From contig OY970368.1 of assembly GCA_963718615.1 (NCBI GenBank), positions 4,096,001-4,160,000 of the forward strand: a DNA stretch of 64,000 bases. The letters run 5' to 3'. The translations under genes and the position numbers were made by a program. The notes under the pieces were generated by a model that was not told where the DNA came from, did no database searches, and was given only the letters and a program-made list of their open reading frames with translations. The stretch comes from an uncultured cyanobacterium. GTDB lineage: Bacteria; Cyanobacteriota; Cyanobacteriia; PCC-9006; JAAUQQ01. Positions 4,607-61,034 of this stretch are shown here, piece by piece (positions within the stretch are counted from its first letter, which is position 1; the number at the start of each line of letters is the position of its first letter).

Positions 4607-4621
4607 ACTTTTTCTAGAATC

Positions 4622-25582: not shown

Positions 25583-27367
25583 TTAGAGTTTTGCAGACTG
25601 CCAAGCGGGCTGGTACTGATATTGAGCAAATTCCATGCGCATTTCCTGCATGTCTGTGTTCTTTGGCAGATGCTTAGTTTTTGACAGATAGATTTTTTCA
25701 CCTATGACCGATTGACCTGACAAAACAAGTAAGCGGAAAAAGTGATACATGTGGCGAGGATTCAACAAGCCTCGAACGCCAAACCCCTTCCATTGAAATT
25801 TCAAGTACCAAATTGCAATAAACAGGTAGGCATGCTTCATTCCCGCAAATACATTGCACCGCAGTGGTTCAAACTTGGCGTTTTCAAGGAAGTGATCAAA
25901 ATGATTCAGAGGACTATAGTCTCCAATCAATTGATCTGCTCGATAAGCATCCATTAAGCCAATATTTTTTCCACTTTCAACCAGTTGATTAAATTGCTCG
26001 TACACATCAACAAACAAGCCTTTCATATTGGCAGGAAGCAACTTCAAAAACTTATTGACAAAGGTAAGATTGAGATGCCATTTACCGACATACATGGGAA
26101 CATGAACACCAAACCACCACATGTACTCAAAATAGACACGCCAACTCATGACACTAGCATTACCTAACTGCTTGTCATGGAAACGAATCAGATGATTGAC
26201 ATTCTCTGCATAGGCTAGATTAAAGCGATTATAGGCTGAACGCTTTGTTTCGGCATCTGCTTCGCCCATCAATTTAGCGCGAATAATTTCAGTAATCCCC
26301 TCAACGGCAAATGCAATAGTTGTCGTTCCATAGGAATAGAAAGCATCGAAAATGAAGGCAGAATCTCCAAGAACATACCAGTTATTAGGGGAGAACATCT
26401 CCTTACTCTTGTAGGCCACTTTAGGTCGATAGTGGAAATCAATATCGTCGCCTGATTTCACTAAATTGTAGAGGATCTTATGGTTAGCCTCTAGGAAAGC
26501 GTAGAACTTATCCTTGGTGTTAATCGACTGCGCAGGAATCACATCATGGTGATGGATAATACCAATAGATAACTCCATTGATTCACGGTCTGTGGGAATC
26601 ATCCATAGCCAGTGACCCTGACCAAAAAAATGATTGGTTGCATAATAGCTACTGGTAGTTGCACGATTGGGATCATAGCCTTTGTCAAATAATGTCCGAT
26701 CAACATTTTTAACGCGAACCCAAGTGGAACCAGTATTCAGACCGTACAGTTTTTCGCGATCGGTAATCACATTGTCGGTTTTGTTGCCAATGATAAAGTT
26801 GCGTCCAGCAGCATCAACCACGTGCTTCGCAGAAAGCTCAAGTAATTCGTCACCCAGTTTCACCTTGACCGTCTTAATTGCATCGCCTTCCGTTAGGTCC
26901 ACATCCACAACGCGGCCATTATAGAATATAACTCCCATCTCCTTATTCATCGCAAGTACATCGCGCTCAAATTTGGCCCGATTCATGTGAAAAGAGGCGA
27001 TCGCAGTCTGACGATTTGACCAAACATGGTAATAGTCATCAAGCTGCTCAGTACTACCAACCTGTTTAGGCCAGTGAAAATTAAGACCAGCTTTGGGTGT
27101 ATGATTTTCAATCATATATTCATGTAATCCCAGCTCCTTACACACAAATAAAGCTGCAACCTCGACCATTGATTCACCAATCTTCATATCCTTCACCTCT
27201 CGCTCCTCTGGTCGAAAATCAATCAGAGCAACTCTAATATTCGGGATATTGAGCATTAGGTGTCTTGCCTGACAAACGCCAGCAAAACCAGCTCCCATGA
27301 TCACCACATCATAATCATGCGAAACAGCAGAGTTGAAAGATTTCTCAAGTACTTGTATCGTATTCAT
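25583..27367 (-). CDS. flavin-dependent halogenase-like oxidoreductase (paralog C)
   Basis: GAGFAG, KIGES, PKAGLNFHW (catalytic Lys position), WLWMIP, GDSAFIFDAFYSYG. Confidence 0.8.
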   Translation of the reverse strand: MNTIQVLEKSFNSAVSHDYDVVIMGAGFAGVCQARHLMLNIPNIRVALIDFRPEEREVKDMKIGESMVEVAALFVCKELGLHEYMIENHTPKAGLNFHWPKQVGSTEQLDDYYHVWSNRQTAIASFHMNRAKFERDVLAMNKEMGVIFYNGRVVDVDLTEGDAIKTVKVKLGDELLELSAKHVVDAAGRNFIIGNKTDNVITDREKLYGLNTGSTWVRVKNVDRTLFDKGYDPNRATTSSYYATNHFFGQGHWLWMIPTDRESMELSIGIIHHHDVIPAQSINTKDKFYAFLEANHKILYNLVKSGDDIDFHYRPKVAYKSKEMFSPNNWYVLGDSAFIFDAFYSYGTTTIAFAVEGITEIIRAKLMGEADAETKRSAYNRFNLAYAENVNHLIRFHDKQLGNASVMSWRVYFEYMWWFGVHVPMYVGKWHLNLTFVNKFLKLLPANMKGLFVDVYEQFNQLVESGKNIGLMDAYRADQLIGDYSPLNHFDHFLENAKFEPLRCNVFAGMKHAYLFIAIWYLKFQWKGFGVRGLLNPRHMYHFFRLLVLSGQSVIGEKIYLSKTKHLPKNTDMQEMRMEFAQYQYQPAWQSAKL

Positions 27368-27562
27368 GTTCTCTCCTCTCCAAAGGAAATAAGATGTAAG
27401 TTTGCGTTAGAGGTGTGAGGTTCGATCGCAGGAGGGTAAATTACCGCTTCAGCCTAAGTTACTTAGCTCAGGCTGAATATCCTAAGGTCATCAATCACAG
27501 TAGATTTGGCTGGGGCATAGCATAACTAGGAAATAGCATGACTAATCCGCCTTCAAAGAACC

Positions 27563-29407
27563 TTATTTGAAGGCATACTCCTTAATAGATTCATCTTCTG
27601 TCATTGATGGATTCTGGGTAGTAAACTCTGTCATCCAAGATTGTAGTTCAGGCTTATATTGATAAGACTTGAACTCCTGACGCATTTCATCGATGTAGCT
27701 ATTGTTCGAGAGATTTCTTGTCTTGAACTTGTACACCATCTCTCCAATCGCAGATTGCACAGTAAAGCCAATTAGCACCAACAGGTAGTAAAGATTAGCA
27801 AAATTTAGGAAACCCTTGACTCCAAACCCTTTCCAAAGGAATTTCACGTACCAAACTGCAACGAAGAAACAAGTATTCTTAATACAGGCAAAGACATTGC
27901 AGTGAAGAGGCTCAAGTTTGGTATTTGCCAAGTAGTTATCGAACTGTTTAGGAGTATAGTATCCCCAAAGCAATTGATCAGCCCGATAACAGTCCATGAG
28001 CCCAAGATTGGCATCTCGCTCAACTAACTGATTGAATTGTTTATTCACATGGGAAAACATACCATCAATTTTCTTGTTGATGCCCAAGAAAATTGAAATA
28101 AAGGTTTGATCGATATGCCACTTACCAACATACATGGGAACCATCATTCCAAACCACCACATGTACTCCCAATAAATACGCCAACTCATAACACTCGCAT
28201 GACCTAGCTGCTTGCCATGATCGCGATAGAGGTAATTAACCGTCAAAGCAAAAATCAAATTGAAACGGTTAAATGCTTCTCGTTTTTCTTCGGTATCAGA
28301 CTCACCCACGAACTTTGAGCGAATGATTTCAGTGACGCTCTCGATCGCGAGAGTCACAGTAGAGGTACCATAAGAGTAGAAAGCATCAAAGATGTAAGCA
28401 GCATCTCCAATGACATACCAGTTGTCTGGTGAAAACATGCGCTTACTCTTATGGGCAACCTTAGGCCAATAGTGGTAATCAATCTTCTCACCACTTTCAA
28501 TCAAGTTATACAGCAACTGGTGGTTACGTTTCAAAAAGTCGAGGAACTTCTCCTCAGTATTGACTTCTTCGGAGGGTAGTTGGTCATGATGATGCATCAT
28601 GCCAATCGAAACTTCCATGGTTTTTGTATCGATCGGAATCATCCACAGCCAATGGCCATGCCCAAAGTAATGATTGGTAGCATAATAATGACTGGTCGAT
28701 GAGTTCTTGGGATCATAGCCACTATGGAAAAGACTACGATCAACACCACGCACTCGCATCCAGGTGGAAGCATTATTTAATCCGAGCAGATTCTCGGGAC
28801 CCGAAAGGACATTGTCTTTCTTCCGCCCAATGATGAATCGGCGTCCTGCTGCATCAATCACATGCTTACAGGTTAGGTAAATCACCTCTCCCTTAAGATT
28901 AATTTTGACCTTCTTAGCTTCATCACCTGGGGTCAAGTCAACATCATCAACTCGACCATTGTAAAACGCAACTCCCATTTCTTGGTCCATCTTGAGTAAA
29001 TCGCGCTCTAGCTTAGCTCGATTCATTTGGAATGCAGGGATCGAAACCTGGCGATTAGACCAAATATGATAGTAATCATCCAAATTTTCTGTCTGATTTG
29101 CAGTTTTAGGCCAATGAAAATTTAGGCCAATTTTAGGAACATGATTTTCAATCAGGTATTCATGAAGACCTAACTCTTTACTTAAAAACAAGGCAGCAAT
29201 TTCAATGGTTGATTCTCCGATTTTAAGATCCTTGTCACCCCGATCAACTGGACGCGGATCAACTAGTGCAACCGTTATACCAGGAATCTTCAGCATCAAA
29301 TGACGAGCTTGGCAAAGTCCTGCAAAACCCGCACCCATAATGACCACATCATAATCATGAGATGAAGTATCTTGGGTCAAGACATCGTGAGTCAGAGTGC
29401 TAATCAT
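27563..29407 (-). CDS. flavin-dependent halogenase-like oxidoreductase (paralog B)
   Basis: GAGFAG, KIGEST, PKIGLNFHW, WLWMIP, GDAAYIFDAFYSYG. Confidence 0.8.
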   Translation of the reverse strand: MISTLTHDVLTQDTSSHDYDVVIMGAGFAGLCQARHLMLKIPGITVALVDPRPVDRGDKDLKIGESTIEIAALFLSKELGLHEYLIENHVPKIGLNFHWPKTANQTENLDDYYHIWSNRQVSIPAFQMNRAKLERDLLKMDQEMGVAFYNGRVDDVDLTPGDEAKKVKINLKGEVIYLTCKHVIDAAGRRFIIGRKKDNVLSGPENLLGLNNASTWMRVRGVDRSLFHSGYDPKNSSTSHYYATNHYFGHGHWLWMIPIDTKTMEVSIGMMHHHDQLPSEEVNTEEKFLDFLKRNHQLLYNLIESGEKIDYHYWPKVAHKSKRMFSPDNWYVIGDAAYIFDAFYSYGTSTVTLAIESVTEIIRSKFVGESDTEEKREAFNRFNLIFALTVNYLYRDHGKQLGHASVMSWRIYWEYMWWFGMMVPMYVGKWHIDQTFISIFLGINKKIDGMFSHVNKQFNQLVERDANLGLMDCYRADQLLWGYYTPKQFDNYLANTKLEPLHCNVFACIKNTCFFVAVWYVKFLWKGFGVKGFLNFANLYYLLVLIGFTVQSAIGEMVYKFKTRNLSNNSYIDEMRQEFKSYQYKPELQSWMTEFTTQNPSMTEDESIKEYAFK

Positions 29408-29806
29408 GAGTTAAAATCTCCCTAAATTGAAAGTGAAATACTTAATCCTTAAGCTTCTCTAAGGGCCAGTCTAGAACACTTTAAAACCTCCACATATCTA
29501 TGGTATGGGCAGGCATCTAAATAGCAAGCTAGAGACTCGAAAGGATAGAATTCTAGCAAGCAGATCGACTTTAGCCCTGCGAAATAGCTAAAGGATTGAA
29601 TTAATTGTTCTACCTGACCAACATTAAATTCATTGAGATTCAGTGAGATTCATATTCAACTAGAATCATAAAACGAAATTTTGCAAGCGCTAACTAGAGT
29701 CATTTAAAAAACCGAAAACCTGATTTGAACAGATATTTTTGATCATTCTTGTATCTTTCTATGGATCAAACCTCATCGCCTATCCCAAAAAGAAGCTTGG
29801 ATTTGA

Positions 29807-31669
29807 TCAGACTTTAACAATCTCAGGCAAGAGAAATTCTTCAGAATCAGACAGCAGCGTATCAGAGCACTTTTGGCTCTTTAAATCTTGTAGAGGTAAA
29901 GATTGCAGTTCTGGAATAAACTGATATGTCTTAAACTCCTCACGCATCTGAGCAATTTCACTGTTATCAGGAACATCTCTGGTTTGAATCCGAAAGATAA
30001 TCTCTCCAAGCGTGGCAAAGAGCATAACGGATGCAACCCAGCTAATATTGCCTATGGTTCGAGTACTCATCAAGCCTCGCCAGCCAAATCCTTGAAGTCG
30101 AAACTTGATAAGCCAGACAATCGCATAAAAACAAGCATTTCTCAAGCTTGCGAACACATTGACTCGCAATGGCTCATACTTAGCATTCTGAGTAAAGTCA
30201 TCAAAATGCTTGGCTGTGGTGTAACCCCAAATTAGCTGATCTGCACGATAGCAATCTAACAATCCTAAATTAGCCTTTTGCTGAATCAACTGATTAAACT
30301 GATCATACACGTCCAACCACAGCGTAGATAATCCCTTGAAAATCTTGACCGTTCGTTCACAAAAACCAATGTCCAAATGCCACTTTCCAATGTATAGTGG
30401 CACAATTACACCAAACCACCAAATATATTCAAAGTAAATGCGCCAACTCATGATGCTGGCATTGCCTAGCTGTTTTGCATGGTCGTAATACAACGTATTC
30501 ACAATATCGTTATAGCCAACGGTAAAATCGTTGTAAGCTTTCCGTTTTTTCTCTGCATTAGTCTCTTGGGCCAGCTTAGCACGTATAATCTCTGTCGTAC
30601 TTTCGATCGCAAATGTAGTTAAAGTTGATCCCTGGGAGTAAAATGCATCAAAAATACAAGCAGCATCTCCAATCACATACCAATTATCTTCGGAGAACAT
30701 CGTCTTAGATTTATGAGCAACTTTAGGCCAATGGTGAAAATCAACTACTTCTCCACTTTGAATTAAGTTAAAAAGAACAGTGTGATTGGCCTTGAGAAAG
30801 TCCAAAAATTTTTCCTGAGTACTCATCTGCTTGCTGGGCAAGACATCATGATGATACATCATACCAATTGAGAGTTGATTATTCTCTATATCAATGGGGA
30901 TCATCCAAAGCCAATGTCCATGCCCAAAATAGTGATTGGTTGCATAGTAATGACTGACAGATGAATTATCAGGATCATAACTATTGTGAAATAGACTGCG
31001 ATCAACATTCTTTACTCTCACCCAGGATGCTCCATTATTTAAACCGTAAAGGTTCTCGGGACCAAATAGCAAATTATCGGTTTTGCGACCAATAATAAAT
31101 CGACGCCCCGCAGCATCAACCACATGTCTGGCTTTTAATTCTTGGATTCCCCCCCTAACTCGAACTTTGACTGTATTGATTGCATCTCCTTGGGTTAAAT
31201 CAACGTCAACGACTTGGCCCTGAATAAAATGAGCTCCTTGAGTGAGATTCATTTGCAATAAATCTTGCTCAAATTCAGAGCGATCGATCTGAAACGAAGC
31301 AATTTCTGGCTGCCGATTTGTCCAAATATGGAAATAATCGTTGATACTTTGGGTGTTACTAAAATGCTTAGGCCAGTGGAAGTTTAGACCAAATTTAGGG
31401 ACCTGTTTCTCCACCAAATAATCATACAAGCCAAGCTCTTTAGAAAGAAACAGAGCAGCAACTTCAACCGTTGATTCTCCAATTTTCAAATCCTTCTTTG
31501 GATCTCTTTGTTGAGAGCGTGGATCAATCAGAGCGACCTTAATATTAGGAACCTTGAGCATTAAATGCCTAGTCTGACAAAGACCTGCAAAGCCTGCGCC
31601 CATAATCACGACATCATAGACTTCCGAAGATTGAACCGTAGTCGAGTCAGAACATTGAGTATTATTCAT
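29807..31669 (-). CDS. flavin-dependent halogenase-like oxidoreductase (paralog A)
   Basis: GAGFAG, KIGEST, PKFGLNFHW, WLWMIP, GDAACIFDAFYSQG; ATG 31669 preferred to 31720. Confidence 0.8.
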   Translation of the reverse strand: MNNTQCSDSTTVQSSEVYDVVIMGAGFAGLCQTRHLMLKVPNIKVALIDPRSQQRDPKKDLKIGESTVEVAALFLSKELGLYDYLVEKQVPKFGLNFHWPKHFSNTQSINDYFHIWTNRQPEIASFQIDRSEFEQDLLQMNLTQGAHFIQGQVVDVDLTQGDAINTVKVRVRGGIQELKARHVVDAAGRRFIIGRKTDNLLFGPENLYGLNNGASWVRVKNVDRSLFHNSYDPDNSSVSHYYATNHYFGHGHWLWMIPIDIENNQLSIGMMYHHDVLPSKQMSTQEKFLDFLKANHTVLFNLIQSGEVVDFHHWPKVAHKSKTMFSEDNWYVIGDAACIFDAFYSQGSTLTTFAIESTTEIIRAKLAQETNAEKKRKAYNDFTVGYNDIVNTLYYDHAKQLGNASIMSWRIYFEYIWWFGVIVPLYIGKWHLDIGFCERTVKIFKGLSTLWLDVYDQFNQLIQQKANLGLLDCYRADQLIWGYTTAKHFDDFTQNAKYEPLRVNVFASLRNACFYAIVWLIKFRLQGFGWRGLMSTRTIGNISWVASVMLFATLGEIIFRIQTRDVPDNSEIAQMREEFKTYQFIPELQSLPLQDLKSQKCSDTLLSDSEEFLLPEIVKV

Positions 31670-31760
31670 TTTAGTTTTGTTCGCTAATTCTGTTGAAGTT
31701 AAAAGGCTTGAAGAAGTCAAGATCTGGGAAGATCATGTTCAAATGTTTCGCTCGGAAAAT

Positions 31761-31994
31761 TCATATCTTTTCCCGAAATATTTTAGGTTGATTTTTGAAC
31801 CAACGGCTAATGCGTGCCCCCTGCCACATCCAAAATCCAGACAGGGTAAGCAGTGGAAATATAGCACACCCCATGATAGTTAACAGGCTTGGATGAGTTC
31901 GCCAGGGAGAGTAAAGAAATATGCCCAAGACCACAGAAGCCAAGATATGGAGAATCCGTAATTGAGCCCGAAGACCGCCTTTCGTTTGGTTCAT
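31761..31994 (-). CDS. small two-helix membrane protein within the PKS-halogenase operon
   Basis: 77 aa; R..LRILHIL..VVLGIFLYSPW...IFPLLTLSGFWMWQG; co-oriented with neighbours. Confidence 0.65.
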   Translation of the reverse strand: MNQTKGGLRAQLRILHILASVVLGIFLYSPWRTHPSLLTIMGCAIFPLLTLSGFWMWQGARISRWFKNQPKIFREKI

Positions 31995-32136
31995 GGTACT
32001 GATTGTGAAAGAAACAGAGGGTGCGAGGAGAATAAAGCTTATGCATGAATTTCTTTTCAGAGTTCATAAAGCCCCTGCTGTGAGTGAAAGCACTCATGGA
32101 CTTTGAAGGAATGAGTTTCTAGGAGGCTCCAGACCT

Positions 32137-35100
32137 CTACCCAGAAATAGCGTATGACAGTGGAGTAGAGAGTTGTTGCTTTAACATTGCAGTACGGATC
32201 GCCTCAGGCCATGGAGCAGGTATAGGCGTTCCATTGGCTTGACGATTTGCCCAAATCACCTCTTGCGCTCCAGTGTGTAGCTTTTCTAGCTCTTGGTTGG
32301 GCAGTTCTCGGAAAAACTCAAAGTTGAATACAGCACCACATTCAGTCATCTGCTGAAGATAGAGATGAACACGAACTTTATCAAAGGGCATTGCCTCTCG
32401 CATATAGTTCATGTGGCTATAGAGTGGTATTACCTCCCCTTGTGCAGTTGAGACTCGAAAATATTGAGGTGCCAACGAGTACAGAAAAAGATCAATGGCC
32501 CGACCTTGCCAAATGAAATAATTACCGTAGTAAACGTTTCCAACTAGGTTAGCCTCTTCCAATGTAGTTTGGAAAACTTCAGTAAAGATCAAATCCCCAT
32601 AGGGTACTTGTGGAGATTGGTAATGGATAGGACCTAAGTCAATTTCAGTCAAACTAGAGGGCAAAGCCTGTAATGTATCCGTTGGTGATTCTTTCAAATC
32701 AATCGCTGCGGGAGATTTCGCTGCGAACTGAGCCATGTAGTCTTGCAAGTAATCTGGCATCGCTTCTGGTGAAGGAATACCATAGCTGAGTAACCGAACC
32801 CATGTGGCATTCACTTCTGCCATGGCAATCCGCTCTAAGCTTTGATCGGATAATACTTTACAAAATTCGATGTAGGTTGCGAACGAAGAGTTAACAAGGT
32901 TACCCAGCCAACACCGGGCTTGGATCGTGTCGTAGGTGGTGGCTTCTCCTAAGACCCGTAAGCTCACACTGTTGGTTACCATACCGAATTGACCACTAAG
33001 GAAGTCGGGAATCAGTTTTTCTGCCATGCTTCGCATGGGTAATTCCCGAATTTTTCCAACCCAACTGATGTACTGGGATACAGTTACTTTGCGACTGATG
33101 CTACATCCTTCTTTGAAAGTGACTGGAAAACGCTTCTCGTAGACGGGTTGGTTTTGGGGACCATCTTCCGTAATTCGAGTTCGATGTTCCCCTGGACGAA
33201 TGATTCCATAGGGATCGATGTAGTTCTCTTCTCCTTGGGTTAACGGATTGACCTGCACGAGTCCACGCTCAGATTGCTCCACGACCACTGCCAGCATTCG
33301 CTTAGGATGACGGGTGAGTTGCAAGGGGAGAGTTAAGACGTAGTAATTCGCTTGGGGGGTCTGAGCTTTCAGAAGGACTACACTGCCCTCACGCTGTTCG
33401 ATCTGGAGGGTAACTTCAAGGCCATTGAAAGCCTTATGAGTTGCCTCCAGAGCTGACCACACCCTAGTGCCCGCCACATCACAATCGTCACCGGATGCAA
33501 TGAGCTGATTAACGATTGTGGATCGAGCCTGACTCAACAACGCGACCCAATCCGCTTGGGAACGATGCTCAATGGACTCGATATCACAGCCTTGAGGGGT
33601 TGCTGCAACGCTACAGATACAGTAGTGATCATCGTGGGACAGCGAGAGTGAGGGCGGTAACTTTAGATCTTGAAACACCTTTCCCGTCAAATAGGGTTGA
33701 CCAGAACGATGGGTTCTAATGGCAAAGTCAAGGTCAGCCTTATCTGAGTCAAGGGCAAGAGTCTTTTGGATGGCCCGTTCAACAATACTTTTTTCAACCT
33801 GTCGGCGCTTTTTTTTGCTCTGTGCGCCTAGGGCGGGAGCATAGCCCAAGGCCATGATAGGGGAAATAAGGCCCATTTGATTGCAGGATATGCTGAGAGC
33901 TTGTTGCAAATTCATCTGATCTCGCTGCTCTGGCATAGCCAATTCCGCTGCGGTCGGATTCTCGGGATGCTCTTCCAAGATTCTCAGTCGATATCCCTGC
34001 AAATGCTCGACGATCGCCCCAAGTTCATTAGTAGCGATGACTTCACAAATATATTCCTTGTCGATTTTTTCCTTGAGAATAGCGGTGATGAGCCGTCGGC
34101 CTTCTCCTGTAGCAGGATTTTGGCAGAAATCGATCCGTTTGATTTCAACAGGGAGACAAATATCTTGAGGAATATTGAGCTGCATGCACTGAAGCAGAAC
34201 ATCCCGAAAATAGGGGTCACCTAGGAGAAAAGCACTGCCATGACCGATGGGAAATCCAGTTTCTTGTAGGTCCGTTGAAGTCTGAGCATGGGATTCCAGT
34301 AGACTCTGTTCTCGACTGAGGGAGAAGATCTGATCCATTTGCTGAAACAAGTTACCCTGGAACAGCAAACTTCCATAGAGATCTCGTTTGGGTTCAATGG
34401 CTAATGCTTGACCCAGTTCGTGTTTTAGGGGTTGACTGGATTGCCGTTTTCCGAGGACCAAGGTTGCAGAAAAATGATCGGCTTGAAATCCAGTTTGTTC
34501 AGTTCGAATCCCAACTTTAATGGCGCGTTCTCCCTCGGCATTCAGTTCAGCCACTTCTGCGTGGATTTCGATGACTACGCCGGAGTTCGGATCCACGACC
34601 ACAGGGCGGCGCAGGGAAATGTTTTCAAAACGAGCGATCGCAGGCTCGGTCTCACCAACCACTACTGCCGCCGCTTGAGCCATAGCTTCTAGGCCAAACA
34701 CGGTGGGAAAAAGATAGGAACCTCGCCAGATATGGTCCTTGATGTATAGATCTCGTTCCAAATTCAGATGGGTCCGAACGGTCAATTCTACCCCAGGCTC
34801 CAGATACCGAATCTGTTCAATAAACCGAAGGTTATCCGTTGCAATCTGAGGTAAGGGTGACCAGGTGTCTAACCCCCCCAGGGGCGCTGCAATGACAACT
34901 TGTTGGACGCCGGGGTTACGGTGGAAGAGTTTGACACAGCGTTCAATCCCTTCCTGAGGAGAGATGGCACCAATTCCCATGCGTTCCAGATTTTTGACGC
35001 TGCCCATGCGGGCCCCCATGCCCACTTCATCCCAAACACTATAAGCCAAGGAGATGATTTGGGTCTCTGGATGTAAATGGGCAAAGCGTTGTAGGAGTAA

Positions 35101-37323: not shown

Positions 37324-37330
37324 GATGGTC

Positions 37331-40444: not shown

Positions 40445-40686
40445 CTTTAAGCATCCCAAAAGACAATCAAAATCACCTAATGAGTCTCGATTAAGCAGTC
40501 AGGCTAGAATGAATGAATCTCAAGGCATAGCCTCAAGGTATAGCCACTTAATTTACGACTAGCTACTACTACGAAATCACAGCACCAAATCCGGAAGAAC
40601 TCGGACTTCAAACAACAGGTAAATTAAGGATCAAAAAGTTTTTACTCAAGACCAAGAAGGCAATAGCATCTCCACCTCAATTTGTT

Positions 40687-40734
40687 CACAAAGTCATACA
40701 AAACAGATCACAAAGAGGCACAAAGAGGCACAAA
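40687..40734. repeat. phased (C/T)ACAAA direct repeats in the divergent promoter region
   Basis: Copies at 40687, 40697, 40709, 40719, 40729 (10-12 nt spacing). Confidence 0.55.
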
Positions 40735-40906
40735 ACAGAAAAGATGCGCACCCAAGCGACCAAACAAAATCACACGAATAAACGAGCGAACGTGTTCCTC
40801 CCTGTCATGGTATGCGTAAAGTTAACTGTAATTGAGTCAGAACGTTACGATAATGATCCAACAGAATGACTATCAAACATTGAAGAGAAGATTAGGGGAC
40901 AACATC

Positions 40907-41692: not shown

Positions 41693-41739
41693 ATAATTGC
41701 GACCTAGGAGGTAGATCGACCTAAAAGGAGACAGAGGAT

Positions 41740-41761
41740 CTCTTGCGCGATCGCGCAAGAG
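41740..41761. repeat. perfect 22-bp palindrome centred on HIP1
   Basis: CTCTTGCGCGATCGCGCAAGAG. Confidence 0.75.
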
Positions 41762-48570: not shown

Positions 48571-48615
48571 CGATTCAGGCTGGCGATTCAGACTAGCGAT
48601 TCAGAAGCGATTCAG
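48570..48615 (+). repeat. short tandem repeat (4x GCGATTCAG)
   Basis: Copies at 48570, 48583, 48596, 48607 in the PKS-AOS spacer. Confidence 0.7.
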
Positions 48616-48667
48616 AAACCTTAAAGGCTTTGTTCGTCAACCTATCCAGAACGATTGAGTACCCCCC

Positions 48668-50002: not shown

Positions 50003-50040
50003 GGACTTTAATCGATACAAATATTGTCCCGGTCAAGACC

Positions 50041-51072: not shown

Positions 51073-51093
51073 GGGCAAATCGCTGTTCGTCGG

Positions 51094-52242: not shown

Positions 52243-52286
52243 GGTCAACACTACTCATTTTCTCTAGATTTTTAGCATTAAAATTC

Positions 52287-53912: not shown

Positions 53913-54229
53913 CTTAAATGAAACATACGCTGAATTTTTGTTGACAACAATAGCACCTGAATGAGCACACATTAAGCAACAGAGATATTCCCGATTTTTC
54001 AGATATTTTCTGTAGATCTTAATAAGTTGGACAGAGCAGAATATGAATAGCTAAATTGACATCAATTCAGTAGATCTCTTAATCTATTAGGCCTACTGAC
54101 TGACTTAGATCTATTGATTTCGTAGATCGAATGTCAAATCATTCTATTCAGTTCATATCAATTGTCTGAACAAGTGAAGCATTCCCGAGTGAGATATTAC
54201 CATTTTAGACATTGAACTTGAGATTAGCC

Positions 54230-54694
54230 ATGAGTAATTACTGGATGAACAAACTTGCCCTAGGGGCTAGCCAATGGTTTGCGGTGGGTGCACTAGCCCT
54301 ACTTTCTGGCTTGCCAACTGCATATGCTGCAGAAGTCAAGGTGAATGTAGCAACCGATGCCAGCGCAAAGGGGCGAGTGGGATGTGCCCTCTTTAAGGGA
54401 GATGGCGGGTTTCCGATGGACCTATCCGATGCGGTTCAGATGTGGCAGAAGCCGCTCAATGGCACGGCATCTTGTGTGTTTAGTGAACTCACTGGAGGTT
54501 CCTATGCGGTGGCGGTATTCCAGGATCTAAACAATAACAATATTGTCGATCGTAACTTTTTCGGGATTCCCCAGGAACCCTGGGCCGTATCAAACAATAT
54601 CCGTCACCGCTTTCGAGAGCCAAACTTTTCCGAAAGTCAGTTCAATTTAAGCAAGGGACAGTCAATCACGTTAAATCTGACTGTTAAAAGGTAG
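54230..54694 (+). CDS. DUF2141 family secreted protein
   Basis: Signal peptide; G.V.CALF, GSYAVAVFQDLNNN...DRNFFGIPQEPWAVSNN. Confidence 0.85.
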   Translation: MSNYWMNKLALGASQWFAVGALALLSGLPTAYAAEVKVNVATDASAKGRVGCALFKGDGGFPMDLSDAVQMWQKPLNGTASCVFSELTGGSYAVAVFQDLNNNNIVDRNFFGIPQEPWAVSNNIRHRFREPNFSESQFNLSKGQSITLNLTVKR

Positions 54695-54718
54695 AAATTA
54701 GTTTCTCCATAGTCCCTA

Positions 54719-54770
54719 TTCGTCCGGCCTAAAGAAATCCGTTTTAGGATATTTCAGAAGGCCGGACGAA
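54719..54770. terminator. long hairpin after the DUF2141 gene
   Basis: ttcgtccggcct...aggccggacgaa 12-bp outer stem plus inner gaaat/atttc pairing. Confidence 0.5.
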
Positions 54771-54890
54771 CGATCATAATCCAATAAGCTTCTCTTCGGA
54801 GCTAACCTTTAGCCTACGAATAACTCGGACTTCAGGTCCAAGCCTCCATGAGGATATATCAGAAAACTATAGAATTAGACAGACATCTTT

Positions 54891-54921
54891 AAAAAAGATG
54901 ACCTGTTAAAGGTCATCTTTT
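54891..54921. terminator. bidirectional terminator-like hairpin between convergent genes
   Basis: aaaaaagatgacct-gttaa-aggtcatctttt. Confidence 0.55.
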
Positions 54922-55015
54922 AATGGTTCATCTTTTGGGTATTGAAATAAGCCATTTTTGCACAGTTTATTTCAAACAACTAGGTCAAAGATTTTAGATT
55001 AAATGTCACAGCTAT

Positions 55016-55699
55016 CTACTGAGGTGTCTTGTCAACTTCCCAAATACAGGCAGCATCATCCATTGCTCGACAGGAAACTTGTTCAACGCTAAACTCTTTT
55101 CCTGTCAACCAGTTTAAAGACTCCTGTAAAGTACCACTCCAAAGCCAGCATATCGGATGATTGGCAGTCTTTCCGGCACAGCAAGCACAGCCTTCATCGA
55201 TATAAGCCCATTTACTACCACGATCTTCCAACCGTAATCCTGTAGAGTATCCTCCCGTGGCATAGACTTTCTCTACATCTGACTTGATTGAATCGAGGAC
55301 TGTCTTAATTTGTACTGATATCGGTAGCAGACGTATAGCTCTACGTGCCGCAAAGTTCATTAGCTTGCCTTGATTTTTAAGGGCGGGCTGAGCTGAGCTA
55401 CGTCCAATTTTAATCATCATCTCCTTTCCTTCAATGCCGTATCGACTGATCATCGAGGTAGAGAGATTCGCATAATCATTCAGATTCATGCTTTTAGAAA
55501 GCTGAAGAACTTCTTCAGGATAATGGTCAATGAGATGTTGCAATTGACTCGCAGATAAGATTTCCGCGAGTGCCTCCTGACCCAGCACCTCCTGAGCTGC
55601 ATTCAGAACCCATCGCATATAGGCGTCAGCAATGGGAATTTCACCGACCGGATCAGCATATTGTTTTACTTCTATCTTTAGCATCGTCTCATTTTTCAT
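55016..55699 (-). CDS. stand-alone V4R (4-vinyl reductase-like) domain protein
   Basis: C-terminal CACC...HPICWLWSG.L...W.TG....VEQVSCRAMDDAAC.W.V cysteine pattern. Confidence 0.78.
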   Translation of the reverse strand: MKNETMLKIEVKQYADPVGEIPIADAYMRWVLNAAQEVLGQEALAEILSASQLQHLIDHYPEEVLQLSKSMNLNDYANLSTSMISRYGIEGKEMMIKIGRSSAQPALKNQGKLMNFAARRAIRLLPISVQIKTVLDSIKSDVEKVYATGGYSTGLRLEDRGSKWAYIDEGCACCAGKTANHPICWLWSGTLQESLNWLTGKEFSVEQVSCRAMDDAACIWEVDKTPQ

Positions 55700-56270: not shown

Positions 56271-57719
56271 ATGAATGGCCAGCAGTTTGATTGGTTTAAC
56301 TCCCATACGTCGGCGTTTAGCTCGCGAACGAAAGCAATGATGCCTTCAAAGTCGACGGCTGGAGCATCCGCTTCGTCACGACAAACTAAGGCTCTAAGTC
56401 GTAGGCAATTGAAAATGTGGGCTATTTCTCTCATCGCCATAGTAGGCTACACCGGAGGTTATCTCGTGGCTCGACCTGCTTTTACTGCTGCTAGCTCCGA
56501 AGTTCAACCCACTGAAGGGCAGACCAAAAGGATTGGTATCCGTGACCGCCCCCTGCCGGTCGAAGTGATTGAACTCATCCCAGTTAACAGCTATACGATT
56601 CAGCGAGAGTATACTGGGGAAGTGAAGGCGGCCCGAGCGAGTAATCTAGGATTTGAGCTTTCCGGCAAGCTGATTGCTTTGAGGGTCCAGACTGGGGACA
56701 CTGTGGCGGCAGGGCAAGTGATAGCACAACTCGATACCCAAAACCTGGAAGCGCAGAGGGGTTTGCTGTTAGCGCAAAGGGATCAGGCGATCGCAGTCTT
56801 ACAGGAGTTACAAAATGGACCTCGGCAAGAGGCCATTGCAGCAGCGCGCTCTAACGTGAATGACTTTGAAAATCAGCTAGTTTTACAACGGACCAAGCAA
56901 TTGCGCCGAGAGTATCTCTATGAAGAGGGCGTGATTGCCCAAGAATCTCTTGACGAAGCGGTCTTAGGTGCCGAAGCCCTTAGCGATCGCCTCGCGGCGG
57001 CTCGCAGTCAGCTCCAGGAATTGCAAACCGGTACGCGTCCGGAACAGGTAGCTGCACAGCAAGCCGTCATTTCACAAATTGATGCTCAAATCGCAGACCT
57101 AGAGATCACGATCGCCAAAGGAACGATTCGAGCCCCCTACAACGGCAGAATTGGCGATCGCCTCGTCGACGAAGGGACAGTCCTCAATCCTGGCCAAGCG
57201 GTCGTGCGCCTCGTTGAAGGAGCCAGTCCAGAAGTAGAAATTGGTATCCCTGAGGATGGAGCAATGAGTTTAATCCCCGGTAGCTCGGCAACGGTTGAAA
57301 TTGGTGGACAAACCTACCGGGCAAGGATCATGGCACTGAAACCCGAAATCGATACCGCCACAAGGACGCGTCCACTGGTGTTGCAATTGGAAGCAACGGC
57401 CTTGCAGACTGTGGCTCCACAACAAATTGCACGGCTGCGATTGGAGCAGGGAGTAGCAACTGAGGGATATTGGGTGCCCGTGACGGCGCTGGTCAAGGGG
57501 GATAGCGGTTTGTGGGCTACCTACGCAGTGGTGGGTGCAAAAAATAGTAAAGAAAGTTCAAATGTCGGCATTGTAGAGCGTCGAGATGTTGAGGTGCTTT
57601 ATACGGAGAATGAGCGGGTCTTAGTCAGAGGAACCTTAGAAGCGGGCGATCGCATCATTGAATCGGGTGTCCAGCGCATTGTTCCCGGTCAAAGCGTTCT
57701 GGTCCAGTCCGATTCCTAG
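56271..57719 (+). CDS. RND efflux periplasmic adaptor subunit
   Basis: TM anchor, LGFELSG..V..GD.V..GQVIAQLD, coiled coil, IRAPYNG, VPVTALV. Confidence 0.92.
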   Translation: MNGQQFDWFNSHTSAFSSRTKAMMPSKSTAGASASSRQTKALSRRQLKMWAISLIAIVGYTGGYLVARPAFTAASSEVQPTEGQTKRIGIRDRPLPVEVIELIPVNSYTIQREYTGEVKAARASNLGFELSGKLIALRVQTGDTVAAGQVIAQLDTQNLEAQRGLLLAQRDQAIAVLQELQNGPRQEAIAAARSNVNDFENQLVLQRTKQLRREYLYEEGVIAQESLDEAVLGAEALSDRLAAARSQLQELQTGTRPEQVAAQQAVISQIDAQIADLEITIAKGTIRAPYNGRIGDRLVDEGTVLNPGQAVVRLVEGASPEVEIGIPEDGAMSLIPGSSATVEIGGQTYRARIMALKPEIDTATRTRPLVLQLEATALQTVAPQQIARLRLEQGVATEGYWVPVTALVKGDSGLWATYAVVGAKNSKESSNVGIVERRDVEVLYTENERVLVRGTLEAGDRIIESGVQRIVPGQSVLVQSDS

Positions 57720-57839
57720 CTCGTCTTCCTAGCTCGTTGCCCGGTTGGCGACATGGGGGTAGAGGTCAGGTGTGTCCCATGCAACATCAGATTTATAGGT
57801 CACTCACTGTTTGGACACCCAGTGTCTGGAGCTTAGGCT

Positions 57840-60800
57840 ATGCTCACACTGCTCTATCGAAATTTTCGACTTCTGATTCTCTGTCTTATTCTAATTTCCC
57901 TTTGGGGCTATGCTTCGTTTCAGCAATTGCCCCGCCTAGAAGATCCAGAACTCACCCCACGCGCGGCGATTGTACAAACCTTCTTCCCTGGAGCCAGTGC
58001 CGATCGTGTTGAATCTCTGGTCACCGAAAAAATTGAAACAGAAATTGCCACGGTCAAGGAAGTCATGACCTACGAGTCCACTTCGCGATCGGGCGTATCT
58101 ACCATTATTGTTGAGTTGCAAGACGCGATTGGCCCTCAGGAGGTCGATACTATCTGGGCGAAGGTGCGGGACAAACTTCGCAATGCTGAACCCCTACTCC
58201 CCCCTGGGGCGACGGAACCAGAACTGGATGAAATTGAAGTTCGCGCCTACGCCCTCCTGGTGGGATTAACCTGGGAACAAAATGACCCACCCAATTATGC
58301 GATCCTACAAAGACGGGCACAGGTATTGGAAGATTCTCTGCGATCGCTTCCAGGCACTGAGTTCGTCGATACCTTTGGGGCACCGGATGAAGAAATCGCC
58401 GTAGAACTTGCCCCCCAGCAGCTTGCCGCCCTTGGCCTAACCACCCAGCAAATTGCCCAGCAAATTCAGCAGAGCGATTCCAAAGGATCGGCAGGGCAAT
58501 TGCGGGGTAACAGTGAATTAGTTCTGGAAGTGGCCGGAGAACTAGACTCTCTGGAGCGGATTCGACGGATTCCACTGCAATCGGGTGTTGGTAATACCAC
58601 AGGAAAATTTGCCTGGTTGGGAGATGTGGCCCAAGTTCGTAAGGGAATTGTGGAACCCCCTTCGGCCTTGGCTCAAGTCAGCGATCGCCCTGCCGTAGTT
58701 ATTGGTGTTTATGTCAAATCCGATTTTCGCTTGGATCAATGGACCATTGCCGCCCATAAAACCCTCAATCAGTTCCGGAAACAACTACCTAGCGGCATTG
58801 GCCTGACAGTTCTCCTGGAGCAAAATCGCTACGTCAGCGCTCGGCTCAACCAACTCTTCTCCGGCCTGATTCAAGGAGCAGGACTCCTTTTCCTCGTCAC
58901 CCTCGTGATGATGGGTTTTCAAGCGTCCCTCGTGATTCAATTCTCCCTGGTGCTCTGTGTGCTGGTTGTTTTTGGCCTCATGGTTCTCCTGGGTATGCCG
59001 CTGCACCAAATGTCAGTGATGGGATTGATTGTGTCCTTGGGGATGCTCATCGACAACGCAATTATCGTAGCGGACGATATTCACGGTCGCTTACACCAGG
59101 GACAACGGATCTCTATTGCCATCCGTGACACTGTCGTTTATCTGACTTCACCCCTCACCGCTGGCACCCTCACGACGGTCTTTTCCTTCATGCCCATTGC
59201 CCTGCTGAAAGGCAATATTGGCGAGTTCATGGGGTCCCTGGGCGTGAATGTGGTTTTGGCGGTGCTGACGTCCTTGGTTGTGGCCTTGGTCTTTACGCCA
59301 GTTTTAATGGGCTATTTGTATAACCATTGGCATCAAATCTGGGGAGTTAAATCCTTGGGTCGATGGGGCAACCAGGGCTTTTCTAATGAGAAATTACTAC
59401 GGTGGTACACGGGCACCTTACGTGGGTCATTGGCCCGTCCGCTGTTGAGTGTGTTTCTCTCACTGCTGCTTCCCCTATCTGGCTTTTTGGCAGTGGCCAC
59501 CTTGGATCTACAGTTTTTTCCTGCTGCCGATCGGGATCTAATGCAGATTCAAATTGAGTTGCCGACAACGGGAGCGATCGCCCAAACTCAAGCAACAGTA
59601 CGTGCCGTGCGAGCGCAGCTTCTCAAGCATCCTGAAGTTCAGGATCTTCATTGGTTCATTGGTGAAAGTAGCCCCCGCATCTACTACAACCAAATGAATA
59701 TTCGCGCAGGAGAAGCCAGCTATGCTGGCGGTATTTTGCAGCTCTCTCAAATTGTATCGAATGACTGGATTCTCGAAACTCAGCACGAATTAGACGCAGC
59801 TTTTCCCAGCTCCCGCATTCTCTTACGTGGGTTTGAGCAAGGTCCACCCTTTGATGCCCCCATTGAATTGCGCATTTATGGACCTGACTTAGATGTCTTG
59901 CAAACTCTGGGAGATGAAGCCCGCGCTTTGCTATCACAACTGCCAGAGGTGACCCATACACGCGCACTCTTAGGCGAAAGCCTACCGCAACTTTCCATAC
60001 AGGTTGATGAAGCGGCTGCTCGCAGCCGAGGACTCAGTCAAGCGGAGATTGCCCAACAGCTCAATACCACGCTGGAAGGAGTGACTGGCGGCTCTGTTCT
60101 GGAAGGCAACGAGGAACTGCCCGTGCGAGTCCGTTTATCCAATGCCGATCGCGCTAGTCTTGACCAGATCGCCAGCCTCAATTTGCTGGTAGCCGCTCCG
60201 TCTATCGGCAATCAACTCAACACGACCCCTCTCAATGCATTAGGCCGTTTAAGTTTAGAACCCAAGCGTTCAGCGATTACCCGCCGCAAGGGTATCCGAA
60301 TCAACACAGTACAAGGATTTTTACAAGCCGGAGCACTCCCGGCCTCTGCGCTGAAAGAGTTTCAGCAGTTGCTCAACCAATCCCTTGTCGTTCCTCCAGG
60401 CTACAATCTGTCCTTTGGGGGGGAAGCGGAAGAACGGGGTGCGGCAGTAGGCGGTTTGTTGGCGAGTATTGCAGTGCTAGTGGTGCTGATGGAGGCGACC
60501 TTGGTGTTGTCTCTCGGCTCGTTCCGGCTCTCTCTTGTGATTTGGGGCATCGCTGCTCTGTCCGCTGGCCTTGGCTTTCTATCCTTGTGGATCTTTGGCT
60601 TCCCCTTAGGTTTTAATCCGCTGATTGGCATTATTGGTCTGATTGGGGTATCGGTCAATGATTCGATTACGGTGTTGACCGCGCTGAAGTCAGATCCCTT
60701 AGCTAGTCAGGGCGATCATCACGCAATCCAGCAAGTGGTCATCCATTGTACACGCCATGTGCTGACAACAACTCTCACAACTGTAGTTGGATTTACACCC

Positions 60801-61034
60801 CTGATTCTTGGGGGGGGTACATTCTGGCCGCCGTTAGCGGTGGTGATTGCCGGGGGGGTATTATGGGCAACGCTACTATCACTCTACTTCATTCCCCCCG
60901 TCTATCTACTGTTGACAAGACGCAAATTCACTGGTGTAATTTTGCCCATAAAAAAGCCCAAAATCCCTAACATTACTGTTCACTATCAAGAGGAGAGAAA
61001 AGCCACTTTCATTCCTAAATCTTCTAAGCCTTAA
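57840..61034 (+). CDS. RND efflux permease (AcrB family)
   Basis: PRLEDP, PGASADRVESLVT, LGMLIDNAIIV, two periplasmic loops, FWPPLAVVIAGG. Confidence 0.93.
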   Translation: MLTLLYRNFRLLILCLILISLWGYASFQQLPRLEDPELTPRAAIVQTFFPGASADRVESLVTEKIETEIATVKEVMTYESTSRSGVSTIIVELQDAIGPQEVDTIWAKVRDKLRNAEPLLPPGATEPELDEIEVRAYALLVGLTWEQNDPPNYAILQRRAQVLEDSLRSLPGTEFVDTFGAPDEEIAVELAPQQLAALGLTTQQIAQQIQQSDSKGSAGQLRGNSELVLEVAGELDSLERIRRIPLQSGVGNTTGKFAWLGDVAQVRKGIVEPPSALAQVSDRPAVVIGVYVKSDFRLDQWTIAAHKTLNQFRKQLPSGIGLTVLLEQNRYVSARLNQLFSGLIQGAGLLFLVTLVMMGFQASLVIQFSLVLCVLVVFGLMVLLGMPLHQMSVMGLIVSLGMLIDNAIIVADDIHGRLHQGQRISIAIRDTVVYLTSPLTAGTLTTVFSFMPIALLKGNIGEFMGSLGVNVVLAVLTSLVVALVFTPVLMGYLYNHWHQIWGVKSLGRWGNQGFSNEKLLRWYTGTLRGSLARPLLSVFLSLLLPLSGFLAVATLDLQFFPAADRDLMQIQIELPTTGAIAQTQATVRAVRAQLLKHPEVQDLHWFIGESSPRIYYNQMNIRAGEASYAGGILQLSQIVSNDWILETQHELDAAFPSSRILLRGFEQGPPFDAPIELRIYGPDLDVLQTLGDEARALLSQLPEVTHTRALLGESLPQLSIQVDEAAARSRGLSQAEIAQQLNTTLEGVTGGSVLEGNEELPVRVRLSNADRASLDQIASLNLLVAAPSIGNQLNTTPLNALGRLSLEPKRSAITRRKGIRINTVQGFLQAGALPASALKEFQQLLNQSLVVPPGYNLSFGGEAEERGAAVGGLLASIAVLVVLMEATLVLSLGSFRLSLVIWGIAALSAGLGFLSLWIFGFPLGFNPLIGIIGLIGVSVNDSITVLTALKSDPLASQGDHHAIQQVVIHCTRHVLTTTLTTVVGFTPLILGGGTFWPPLAVVIAGGVLWATLLSLYFIPPVYLLLTRRKFTGVILPIKKPKIPNITVHYQEERKATFIPKSSKP

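Follow-up and report, generated by a model that had tools for sequence, protein, structure and literature searches.

The 64,000-nt stretch of contig OY970368.1 (assembly GCA_963718615.1) of an uncultured cyanobacterium, referred to here as the window, carries a genomic island in which two polyketide gene sets lie back to back. Arm 1 (25583-40459, minus strand) encodes a polyene synthase of the PksE type and three flavin halogenases, and arm 2 (42187-54694, with a V4R-domain gene and an MFP/RND efflux pair in addition) encodes a reducing polyketide synthase (PKS) and an alpha-oxoamine synthase (AOS). The reading we prefer, with a probability of roughly 0.65, is that the island was acquired horizontally and that it consists of two independent biosynthetic clusters. 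Both clusters are of recognisable kinds for which no product was found in the searchable literature, and they do not constitute a categorically new system. Genes were called from the list of open reading frames (ORFs) combined with Pfam and NCBIfam scans. All the genes of both arms named in an earlier reading of the bare sequence (the original prediction) were recovered where they had been placed, as long ORFs with strong family matches, and the gene pattern of the island is not due to chance. The genome to which the window belongs is complete and was used for genome-wide Pfam searches.

Separability of the two arms

The GC content at third codon positions (GC3) of the island is 0.375-0.55, compared with 0.60-0.65 in 11 of the 13 scored ORFs at 117-24819, which marks the region as an acquired island. 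The other two scored flank ORFs sit in a second low-GC patch (1218-4520, GC3 0.26-0.31). Repeat and Rfam scans detected neither inverted repeats of at least 25 nt nor a tRNA at the island ends, and a tRNA was the sole match of the Rfam scan.

It had been proposed in the original prediction that the products of the two arms are coupled into a ceramide-like hybrid, and the distribution of the arms does not support this. A genuine orthologue of the arm-2 AOS (67-80% identity where genuine) was present in two of the 15 arm-1 genomes tested. Both are Phormidesmis metagenome-assembled genomes (MAGs; G041 and G042), in which the AOS is 76-80% identical to that of the window and is encoded about 11 kb from the KS-AT gene of arm 1 on the same contig. 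The AOS matches in the other 13 arm-1 genomes reached 36-46% identity and lay in unrelated places. JamD-like halogenases were found in none of the four arm-2 genomes (Thermosynechococcaceae, Pirellulaceae), with a Microcystis genome as the positive control. In a Leptolyngbyaceae MAG, arm 1 is nested among the closest halogenase relatives of the window and its five genes are intact; there is no arm-2 orthologue in this MAG and other genes flank arm 1. Among the genomes tested, the arms adjoin in the window and its two close Phormidesmis relatives only. Since each arm is complete alone elsewhere, the gene sets are separable and the hybrid idea finds no support.

Several observations weigh against this reading. 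The arms are adjacent and divergent in the window and in both Phormidesmis MAGs, although accessory genes have changed places and no flanking gene is common to the three, and a pair that stays intact despite rearrangement is what would be expected if it were kept together for a reason. Moreover, arm 1 in this lineage lacks the hydrolase, short-chain dehydrogenase/reductase (SDR) and ABC exporter which follow it elsewhere, so the neighbouring arm may supply it with functions such as the pump. As to expression, a search of sequencing runs for 36000-45000 listed four DNA data sets (shares of 0.07-0.29) and none of RNA. The corresponding alternative is a single pathway that would link the arm 1 polyene, once halogenated, to the arm 2 amino-lipid, for instance by N-acylation, and so yield a ceramide-like compound exported by the RND pump, which is the single pump of the island. 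We consider it highly improbable, since the Pfam scan revealed no gene for a joining enzyme in the island (no N-acyltransferase, condensation domain, ligase or ceramide-synthase-like gene) and arm 1 has its own releasing thioesterase (TE), quite apart from the many genomes in which one arm is found alone. Adjacency of two clusters in one lineage does not amount to a hybrid pathway unless it is backed by comparative evidence.

The rearrangements between the window and the two Phormidesmis MAGs concern the DUF2141 gene, the hydrolase gene, a second CrtISO-like gene and the pump, which all change places; the DUF2141 gene, for instance, lies between the arms in both MAGs. Both MAGs also have an ORF of 317-325 codons between the arms (L033:12549-13502 and L034:4600-5577), where the window has an alpha/beta hydrolase gene, and neither ORF gave a Pfam or NCBIfam match. 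The island of G041 also contains an IS605 OrfB/TnpB-type gene between the V4R and CrtISO-like genes (L032:8268-9422) as well as unrelated genes, including one for a 1610-aa phytochrome-type histidine kinase.

The arm 1 synthase

Arm 1 comprises the following genes:

37331-40459, minus strand: KS-AT protein, PksE-type first subunit, 1042 aa (Pfam ketoacyl-synt, E 6e-55; Acyl_transf_1, E 1e-22)
32137-37341, minus strand: PksE-type second subunit, 1734 aa, ACP-ACP-KR-DH-PPTase-hotdog TE-hotdog TE (Pfam PP-binding, KR, PS-DH, 4HBT_2)
31761-31994, minus strand: small membrane protein, 77 aa (ORF with two predicted membrane helices)
29807-31720, minus strand: hal1, the most divergent halogenase paralogue, 637 aa (Trp_halogenase, E 9e-12)
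27563-29407, minus strand: hal2, JamD-family halogenase paralogue, 614 aa (Trp_halogenase, E 9e-10)
25583-27367, minus strand: hal3, JamD-family flavin halogenase, 594 aa (Trp_halogenase, E 7e-15)

The 1734-aa protein contains two acyl carrier protein (ACP) domains, one detected by Pfam (residues 161-228) and the other by NCBIfam (residues 258-328), which are also visible as a 297-nt repeat in the DNA. They are followed by a ketoreductase (KR; 586-758) and a dehydratase (DH; 852-1127) domain, a region resembling phosphopantetheinyl transferases (PPTase) and two hotdog domains. The nearest solved relative of the first ACP is the ACP of CalE8 (6e-5). Residues 1592-1720 match the solved structures of CalE7 (7e-14), SgcE10 (4e-12) and DynE7 (1e-10), and a profile of ten orthologous stretches covering the first hotdog domain (approximately residues 1390-1530) matches SgcE10 (4e-9). 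What had been listed as "TE2" in the original prediction is refined here to a tandem pair of hotdog domains of the E10/E7 type.

The PPTase region is weak by sequence, with a Pfam ACPS match below the cut-off (E 0.014) and a profile match to AcpS (3hyk) at E 0.23. An AlphaFold (AF2) model of residues 1150-1590 had a mean pLDDT of 65.5, with values of 70-90 across the first 208 residues, which make up the PPTase part. A Foldseek search with this model retrieved, at about 2e-8 and with TM-scores of 0.72-0.77 normalised to the target length, the thioesterases SgcE10, EspE7, CalE7 and DynE7, as well as the Sfp-type transferases AASDHPPT (1e-7), Sfp (1e-6) and PptT (4e-6). The motifs GCDIE and W..A.E...K, which we take to be PPTase motifs, are invariant in all ten aligned orthologues. 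The modelled fold and the motifs thus support a built-in Sfp-type PPTase domain, to which the sequence matches lend weak support. Sequence, profile and structure-model evidence taken together give a synthase that reads KS-AT / ACP-ACP-KR-DH-PPTase-TE-TE, i.e. the PksE domain set in the PksE order, split after the AT domain into two ORFs, with a doubled ACP and a tandem TE fused on. The assignment of arm 1 to PksE-type polyene synthases with a fused E10/E7-type TE, already made in the original prediction, is supported in this way by the domain scans and the CalE7, SgcE10 and DynE7 matches.

The split of the ORF is common to the window, the two Phormidesmis MAGs and the Leptolyngbyaceae MAG; the KS-AT protein and the second subunit are fused in Aetokthonos (2565 aa) and Nostoc (2318 aa). 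The KS-AT protein is 49-64% identical to the N-terminal part of the 120 longer proteins listed, at least 22 of which were named "enediyne polyketide synthase" automatically by JGI; such homologues are 52-58% identical. Two results for the KS-AT protein speak against a close tie to the actinomycete enzymes: the best 60 of its 134 matches among solved structures are ordinary PKSs, and the NCBIfam scan detected a partial similarity to PfaA. Cyanobacterial enediyne-type KS domains have been placed beside those of polyunsaturated fatty acid (PUFA) synthases (Calteau et al. 2014). Eight of the 120 listed proteins (P0174, P0178, P0188, P0192, P0193, P0203, P0213 and P0244) are PksE-like synthases of about 2800-3100 aa which also hold amine-oxidase/FAD domains (PF01593 and others), i.e. 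a polyene synthase fused to a CrtI-like flavoprotein. One of these eight is labelled Candidatus Methanoperedens.

The 77-aa protein has hydropathy peaks at residues 12-28 and 37-53. It gave no family match in the Pfam scan and was found by tblastn at the same position, with 49-64% identity, in three other arm-1 loci (L008, L010 and L011).

All enediyne gene clusters are described as containing E10/E/E5/E4/E3, and E together with E10 alone yields a heptaene, according to the review PMC4480864. The complete genome of the window was searched for PF07593 (UnbV_ASPIC) and PF08012 (DUF1702), and no match to either family was found. We take these two families to be E4 and E3, respectively. DUF1702 is not mentioned in PMC9682884. 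Two PF08012 copies were found in Nostoc sp. NIES-4103 (G051), the positive control, so the search for this family works; DUF1702 was present in one of the five arm-1 genomes searched. The prediction that enediyne accessory families are missing was therefore borne out for the two families searched. As no E3/E4-type family was detected in the genome, arm 1 is a polyene cluster and is better classified under polyene synthases than under enediyne clusters. The DUF1702 genes of Nostoc sp. NIES-4103 stand in a locus (L017:14158-21069) in which genes for an aldehyde dehydrogenase, an RPE65-type carotenoid oxygenase, an FAD monooxygenase and the two DUF1702 proteins come after a PksE-like gene and a pair of halogenase genes.

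The halogenases

The products of hal1, hal2 and hal3 are mutually 55-59% identical, and the genes form a tandem DNA repeat with a period of about 2040-2262 nt. All three proteins contain the motifs GxGxxG (GAGFAG) and WxWxIP (WLWMIP) and the conserved lysine motif KIGES, and their Trp_halogenase scores exceed the Pfam cut-off, so the three predicted genes are genuine flavin halogenase genes. The nearest solved relatives of all three are PltA, CmlS and other flavin halogenases (for hal1, PltA at 3e-14 and CmlS at 2e-7). The hal3 orthologues of the two Phormidesmis MAGs and of the Leptolyngbyaceae MAG are each 83-88% identical to hal3 of the window. A quick maximum-likelihood tree was computed from 36 rows, with a partial row from Aetokthonos left out; in this tree hal1, hal2 and hal3 each form their own clade with one gene apiece from these three MAGs (SH-aLRT 100). 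Further partners of hal2 and hal3 come from Waterburya, Microcystis and Gloeothece, and the hal1 clade is basal. The three genes are therefore old paralogues, which suggests that these anciently diverged enzymes act at three different sites or steps.

A total of 526 halogenase relatives were found at E<=1e-30, and the best 120 listed are almost all cyanobacterial by name. Among them, the protein P0094 of Moorena producens JHB is 66% identical to hal3 (55-66% across hal1-3) and falls inside the 33-row cyanobacterial clade that holds hal1-3. The gene for a 98% identical twin of P0094 in Moorena sp. SIO3H5 has the gene for an 84-aa ACP on one side and, on the other, that for a PKS starting with a KS domain. 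JamD of M. producens JHB is described in PMC11725856 as a single-component alkynyl halogenase of jamaicamide biosynthesis, and PMC12645471 reports that JamD brominates terminal alkynes. P0094 was taken as JamD because of the strain and of the ACP-halogenase-KS gene order of its twin; that this identity is presumed from strain and gene order counts against the reading built on it. By sequence, hal1-3 group with this presumed JamD, and by virtue of this kinship they may act as single-component enzymes. The lack of a flavin reductase gene in the island, according to the Pfam scan, fits such an enzyme.

The cluster at 25583-40459 probably works as follows. The split, iterative PksE-type PKS would activate its own tandem ACPs by means of the built-in PPTase and assemble a conjugated polyene on the ACP through cycles of condensation, ketoreduction and dehydration. 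The fused tandem TE of the E10/E7 type would then release the chain, by analogy with SgcE/SgcE10 as a linear hydrocarbon of the heptaene type. The three halogenases would add as many as three halogens to the unsaturated chain, probably at its ends or close to them, and the small two-helix membrane protein would accompany these steps. Chain length, halide, halogenation sites and the product itself are predictions in this scheme.

The halogenation might instead be cryptic or enabling: a halogenated polyene would undergo elimination or coupling to give alkynes, enynes or rings, with a polyyne or enyne as the end product, which might still be halogenated at its ends. In favour of this, JamD acts on alkynes and its family nests with the PksE-associated halogenases, a diiodotetrayne intermediate reportedly occurs in enediyne biosynthesis, and the presence of several conserved paralogues suggests successive site-specific steps. 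Nevertheless, we regard it as highly unlikely, because no acetylenase or desaturase gene and no E3/E4-type family was found in the island or genome and the data contain no sign of elimination chemistry. In addition, the halogen is retained in jamaicamide.

Recurrence of arm 1

Two scans of species-representative genomes for the halogenase yielded 63 loci, which collapsed to 55 places; the neighbourhood was defined as the sequence within 10 kb. Three quarters of the cyanobacterial places (33 of 44) have a PksE-like PKS in the neighbourhood, seven have other PKSs only (a jamaicamide-like setting) and four have no PKS. The 11 non-cyanobacterial places include none with a PksE-like PKS, one with another PKS and ten with no PKS; among the latter, homologues at 41-50% identity (loci L020, L091, L092 and L096) have no PKS in the neighbourhood. 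One non-cyanobacterial place, labelled Gracilibacteria, holds a gene 81% identical to P0094. A PksE-type synthase with JamD-like halogenases is a recurring cyanobacterial unit. In Aetokthonos, Waterburya and Microcystis, arm 1 is followed by genes for a 335-aa hydrolase, an SDR, a PadR regulator and a DevBCA-type ABC exporter, none of which is present in the window. On three Nostocales contigs (L056/L086, L060/L083 and L058/L082), two halogenase places lie 13-17 kb apart, each with a PksE-like match (58-61% identity versus 50-56%), which suggests two PksE-like clusters side by side.

The original prediction mentioned an orphan cluster with a PksE-like PKS and three halogenases from Microcystis. 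Such a cluster is indeed described for Microcystis aeruginosa PCC 7806 by Frangeul et al. 2008 (PMC2442094), and similar clusters are still called uncharacterised in a paper on sponge symbionts (PMC6520454) and in a Lake Erie preprint. The literature searched (main texts, mostly outside subscription journals) named no product of a cyanobacterial PksE and halogenase cluster; the supplements to Calteau et al. 2014 (cluster-family files) and to the Lake Erie preprint (Table S1) may list these clusters. The arm 1 family was accordingly noted as early as 2008 and is frequent among bloom-forming and benthic cyanobacteria, and no product was found for it in that literature. The kinship with an alkyne halogenase, the synthase's own PPTase and double enediyne-type TE, and the absence of the two enediyne accessory families provide a concrete structural prediction and a compact five-gene set.

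A wider interpretation, which is speculative and which we hold to be distinctly unlikely, is that the PksE unit with its two or three JamD-like halogenases (33 of the 44 cyanobacterial places) turns a C15-type polyene into end-halogenated polyenes, enynes or polyynes, the halogen being either a decoration or a handle for the introduction of triple bonds, and that in Phormidesmis the product might meet the amino-lipid of the neighbouring cluster. If this were true, polyenes would be converted to alkynes in a halogen-dependent manner, comparable to the iodinated tetrayne recently linked to enediyne cores. Polychlorinated C15 enyne lipids have been reported from marine cyanobacteria, and the unit would be a possible source of them.

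Arm 2 and its distribution

Arm 2 and the V4R gene comprise the following features:

42187-48570, plus strand: MAS/Pks2-like reducing PKS, 2127 aa, KS-AT-DH-(about 570 aa)-KR-ACP (Pfam)
48668-50002, plus strand: AOS, 444 aa (Aminotran_1_2, E 7e-50)
49951-51072, plus strand: stand-alone enoyl reductase (ER) of the medium-chain dehydrogenase/reductase (MDR) type, candidate trans-ER (ADH_zinc_N, ADH_N)
51094-52242, plus strand: metallo-beta-lactamase (MBL)-fold hydrolase (Lactamase_B, E 1e-17; Strvi_7410-family MBL, E 5e-21, below the cut-off)
52287-53912, plus strand: CrtI/CrtISO-like FAD oxidoreductase (carot_isom, E 8e-44, 150 bits versus a cut-off of 587)
54212-54694, plus strand: DUF2141 protein (PF09912, E 7e-27)
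55016-55699, minus strand: protein with a V4R domain, a small-molecule-binding domain (PF02830, E 2e-9)

The reducing PKS aligns end to end with the NCBIfam model NF041183 (Pks2; residues 8-2114 versus positions 4-2079 of 2086, E 2e-278, below the cut-off). It starts with a KS domain and ends in an ACP, and it has neither a loading module nor a TE. Residues 1190-1770 gave no Pfam match, ADH_zinc_N included, even at E 1; by eye, they form an MDR-like stretch without the glycine-rich nucleotide motif. The stand-alone MDR reductase matches the ER part of Pks2 (positions 1429-1726, E 3e-11). An MDR-like stretch that lacks the nucleotide motif, together with a conserved stand-alone MDR reductase, suggests a dead internal ER served in trans. 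The internal ER is thus probably inactive, a judgement from inspection of the sequence by eye, and this basis speaks against giving it much weight.

The AOS gene starts 97 nt downstream of the PKS gene. Its product gives a family-level match across the whole fold-type-I PLP domain, and over residues of approximately 75-430 it matches bioF (1e-97), KBL (3e-90), serine palmitoyltransferase (SPT; 5e-88) and, down to 2e-68, ALAS models, all below their equivalog cut-offs. The solved chains nearest to the AOS, 3a2b and 8guh, are named serine palmitoyltransferase (5e-69). The solved relatives of the CrtI/CrtISO-like flavoprotein include a gamma-carotene desaturase (3e-15) and a phytoene desaturase (1e-12). 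The DUF2141 protein has a hydrophobic N-terminus that resembles a signal peptide by eye; the hydropathy scan flagged no helix in it and the NCBIfam scan found no match for it. A PKS that ends in an ACP, lacks a TE and stands beside an AOS gene was kept in all six orthologous loci extending that far (G041, G042, L037, L038, L039 and L040). The PKS-then-AOS logic for an alpha-amino-ketone lipid, as put forward in the original prediction, agrees with this arrangement.

A scan with the AOS revealed arm 2 in four loci readable for gene order, which belong to two Thermosynechococcaceae MAGs and two Pirellulaceae genomes, one of them complete; a fifth hit (L041) is a 2.6-kb Planctomycetaceae contig with the AOS alone. 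The four loci share the order reducing PKS, AOS, ER, MBL hydrolase and CrtISO-like gene. The MDR reductase gene after the AOS and the MBL hydrolase gene were kept in all arm-2 loci, and the CrtISO-like gene is present in one to three copies. The PKS orthologues are 63-69% identical to that of the window in cyanobacteria and 48% in Pirellulaceae. The cyanobacterial arm-2 loci add the V4R gene, orthologues of which (50-55%) lie beside arm 2 in G041, G042, L037 and L040; of the two Thermosynechococcaceae loci, L037 also has a DUF2141 gene. In the Pirellulaceae loci (L038 and L039), an MFP-RND pair (35-39% identity) is inserted between the MBL hydrolase and CrtISO-like genes, followed by an outer-membrane factor in L038. 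A PadR gene and a DevBCA-like ABC system stand beside arm 2 in L040; the flank of L037 ends before that point.

Out of 8000 AOS relatives scored, 2749 reached E<=1e-100, and each of the best 120 listed shares at least 64% identity with the AOS of the window. The named ones include Stieleria, Rosistilla, Neorhodopirellula, Mariniblastus and Rubripirellula, most names being those of Pirellulales. Clusters of the arm-2 type seem to be widespread in this order (L038 and L039; proteins P0279, P0308, P0319 and others), and the literature searches brought up no paper on them. AOS-like domains of 45-46% identity were also seen in open frames of 2558-2674 aa (L025 in G043:C4 and L027 in G045:C2), probably PKS-AOS fusions. 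These frames lie far from arm 1; Nostoc NIES-4103 and Scytonema HK-05 have similar ones of about 1700 aa. The searchable literature, which mostly leaves subscription journals outside, assigned no product to PKS-AOS clusters from either cyanobacteria or planctomycetes. Arm 2 is a separate, well-conserved PKS and AOS cluster of cyanobacteria and many Pirellulales, and it may make a widespread amino-lipid.

For the cluster at 42187-55699, probably together with the MFP/RND pair, the likeliest chemistry is as follows. The iterative MAS-like PKS, with its probably dead ER and the stand-alone ER, would produce a reduced acyl-ACP. The AOS would then condense the chain with an amino acid under decarboxylation and so off-load it as a long-chain alpha-amino ketone similar to a sphingoid or fumonisin base. 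The MBL hydrolase and the CrtI-like flavoprotein would modify this compound before its export. Which amino acid would be used and what would finally be exported are predicted from kinship, as is the length of the chain.

An unlikely though possible view of arm 2 is that it does not belong to secondary metabolism at all: its genes would encode a conserved route to an amino-lipid of the envelope, namely a sphingoid-type base derived from a PKS-built chain, and the pump and the DUF2141 protein would carry the lipid to the outer membrane. The more than 100 close relatives of the AOS (at least 64% identical, most of them named as Pirellulales), the gene order kept across two phyla, the efflux system with an outer-membrane factor beside arm 2 and the bacterial serine palmitoyltransferase as the nearest solved relative of the AOS all agree with this. 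Its occurrence, however, is patchy in cyanobacteria, and in the window it is part of a low-GC3 island. Furthermore, the AOS reached none of the SPT equivalog cut-offs (295 bits versus 640 for NF047600; 245 versus 500; 190 versus 670), and no ceramide synthase or reductase genes were recognised in the Pfam scan. Arm 2 is, like arm 1, a good target for product discovery and heterologous expression.

The pump, the inter-arm hydrolase and the flanks

The remaining features of the island are:

40832-41692, plus strand: alpha/beta hydrolase between the arms, 286 aa (Abhydrolase_1, E 2e-18)
56271-57719 (MFP) and 57840-61034 (RND), plus strand: efflux pair (HlyD_3; ACR_tran, E 3e-138)

The inter-arm hydrolase has one orthologue (59%), which is encoded in G041 at the far end of the island beside PadR/MFP/RND genes. 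No orthologue was found within 10 kb in the loci with arm 1 or arm 2 only, and the hydrolase is a lineage-specific accessory. It is not orthologous to the 335-aa hydrolase encoded after arm 1 in other genomes (no tblastn hit at 1e-10). In both phyla, efflux genes stand beside arm 2 (RND with an outer-membrane factor in Pirellulaceae, an ABC system in L040). An MFP/RND pair of 45-48% identity also adjoins arm 1 in genome G043, which lacks arm 2, and this genome encodes four RND paralogues which, at 47-48% identity, are just as similar as the Phormidesmis pump. The attempt to assign the pump to one arm by orthology failed on these equally similar paralogues; given the pair beside arm 1 in G043 and the four paralogues, the pump is not assignable to either arm.

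The island is flanked by a gene for a large cadherin/SdrD-B/RTX-repeat protein (61616-63952, minus strand). A relative of this protein with 41-52% identity is encoded directly upstream of arm 1 in the Leptolyngbyaceae MAG (L099:15722-18553), in which a DUF4347/RTX protein gene follows hal3. The 110-aa ORF at 61162-61494 had no match in the NCBIfam scan. On the other side, the second low-GC patch (1218-7053, GC 0.36-0.40) contains genes for an AAA ATPase and an AbiEi-like antitoxin-type regulator as well as two ORFs without a family match; a DDE transposase (5560-7053) follows.

Comparison with known systems

Arm 2 resembles the chemistry of the fumonisin Fum1/Fum8 type and of SPT in having a reducing PKS which ends in an ACP without a TE, followed by a stand-alone AOS. 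It differs from the fumonisin type in being bacterial, in being kept in cyanobacteria and Pirellulales, and in the associated MBL hydrolase, CrtI-like flavoprotein, DUF2141 and V4R genes, which to our knowledge are not part of the fungal PKS-AOS pathways. The region of ER size without an ADH_zinc_N match and the separate MDR reductase gene beside the AOS are reminiscent of LovB/LovC, in which an inactive ER is complemented by a trans-acting one. The arm-2 PKS is nevertheless a bacterial MAS/Pks2-like enzyme, and its ER is judged inactive by eye.

The halogenases of arm 1 share with JamD of M. producens JHB the motifs, the size class (about 590-640 aa with a C-terminal extension of about 200 aa) and a common cyanobacterial clade, with 55-66% identity to P0094. 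JamD, however, acts in a modular PKS/NRPS (nonribosomal peptide synthetase) pathway, where its gene follows an ACP gene, whereas the window has three paralogues beside an iterative polyene synthase. The orphan cluster of Microcystis PCC 7806 is similar to arm 1 in combining an iterative PksE-like PKS with several halogenases and in having no known product. In the Microcystis loci compared (L015 and L084), two or three JamD-like halogenase genes stand beside the PksE-like PKS gene. The Microcystis PKS is only 37-52% identical to that of the window, and its cluster includes genes for an SDR, an FMO-like protein, a GDSL lipase and a DevBCA-type exporter, which the window lacks.

The PksE/E10 enediyne systems (SgcE/SgcE10, CalE8/CalE7 and DynE8/DynE7) have the same KS-AT-ACP-KR-DH-PPTase set as arm 1 and a hotdog TE of the same family by both sequence and fold. 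In contrast to them, the arm 1 synthase is split into two ORFs and has two ACPs and two TE domains fused to it. It also resides in a cyanobacterium whose genome is without UnbV_ASPIC and DUF1702 genes, and three halogenase genes lie beside the PKS genes.

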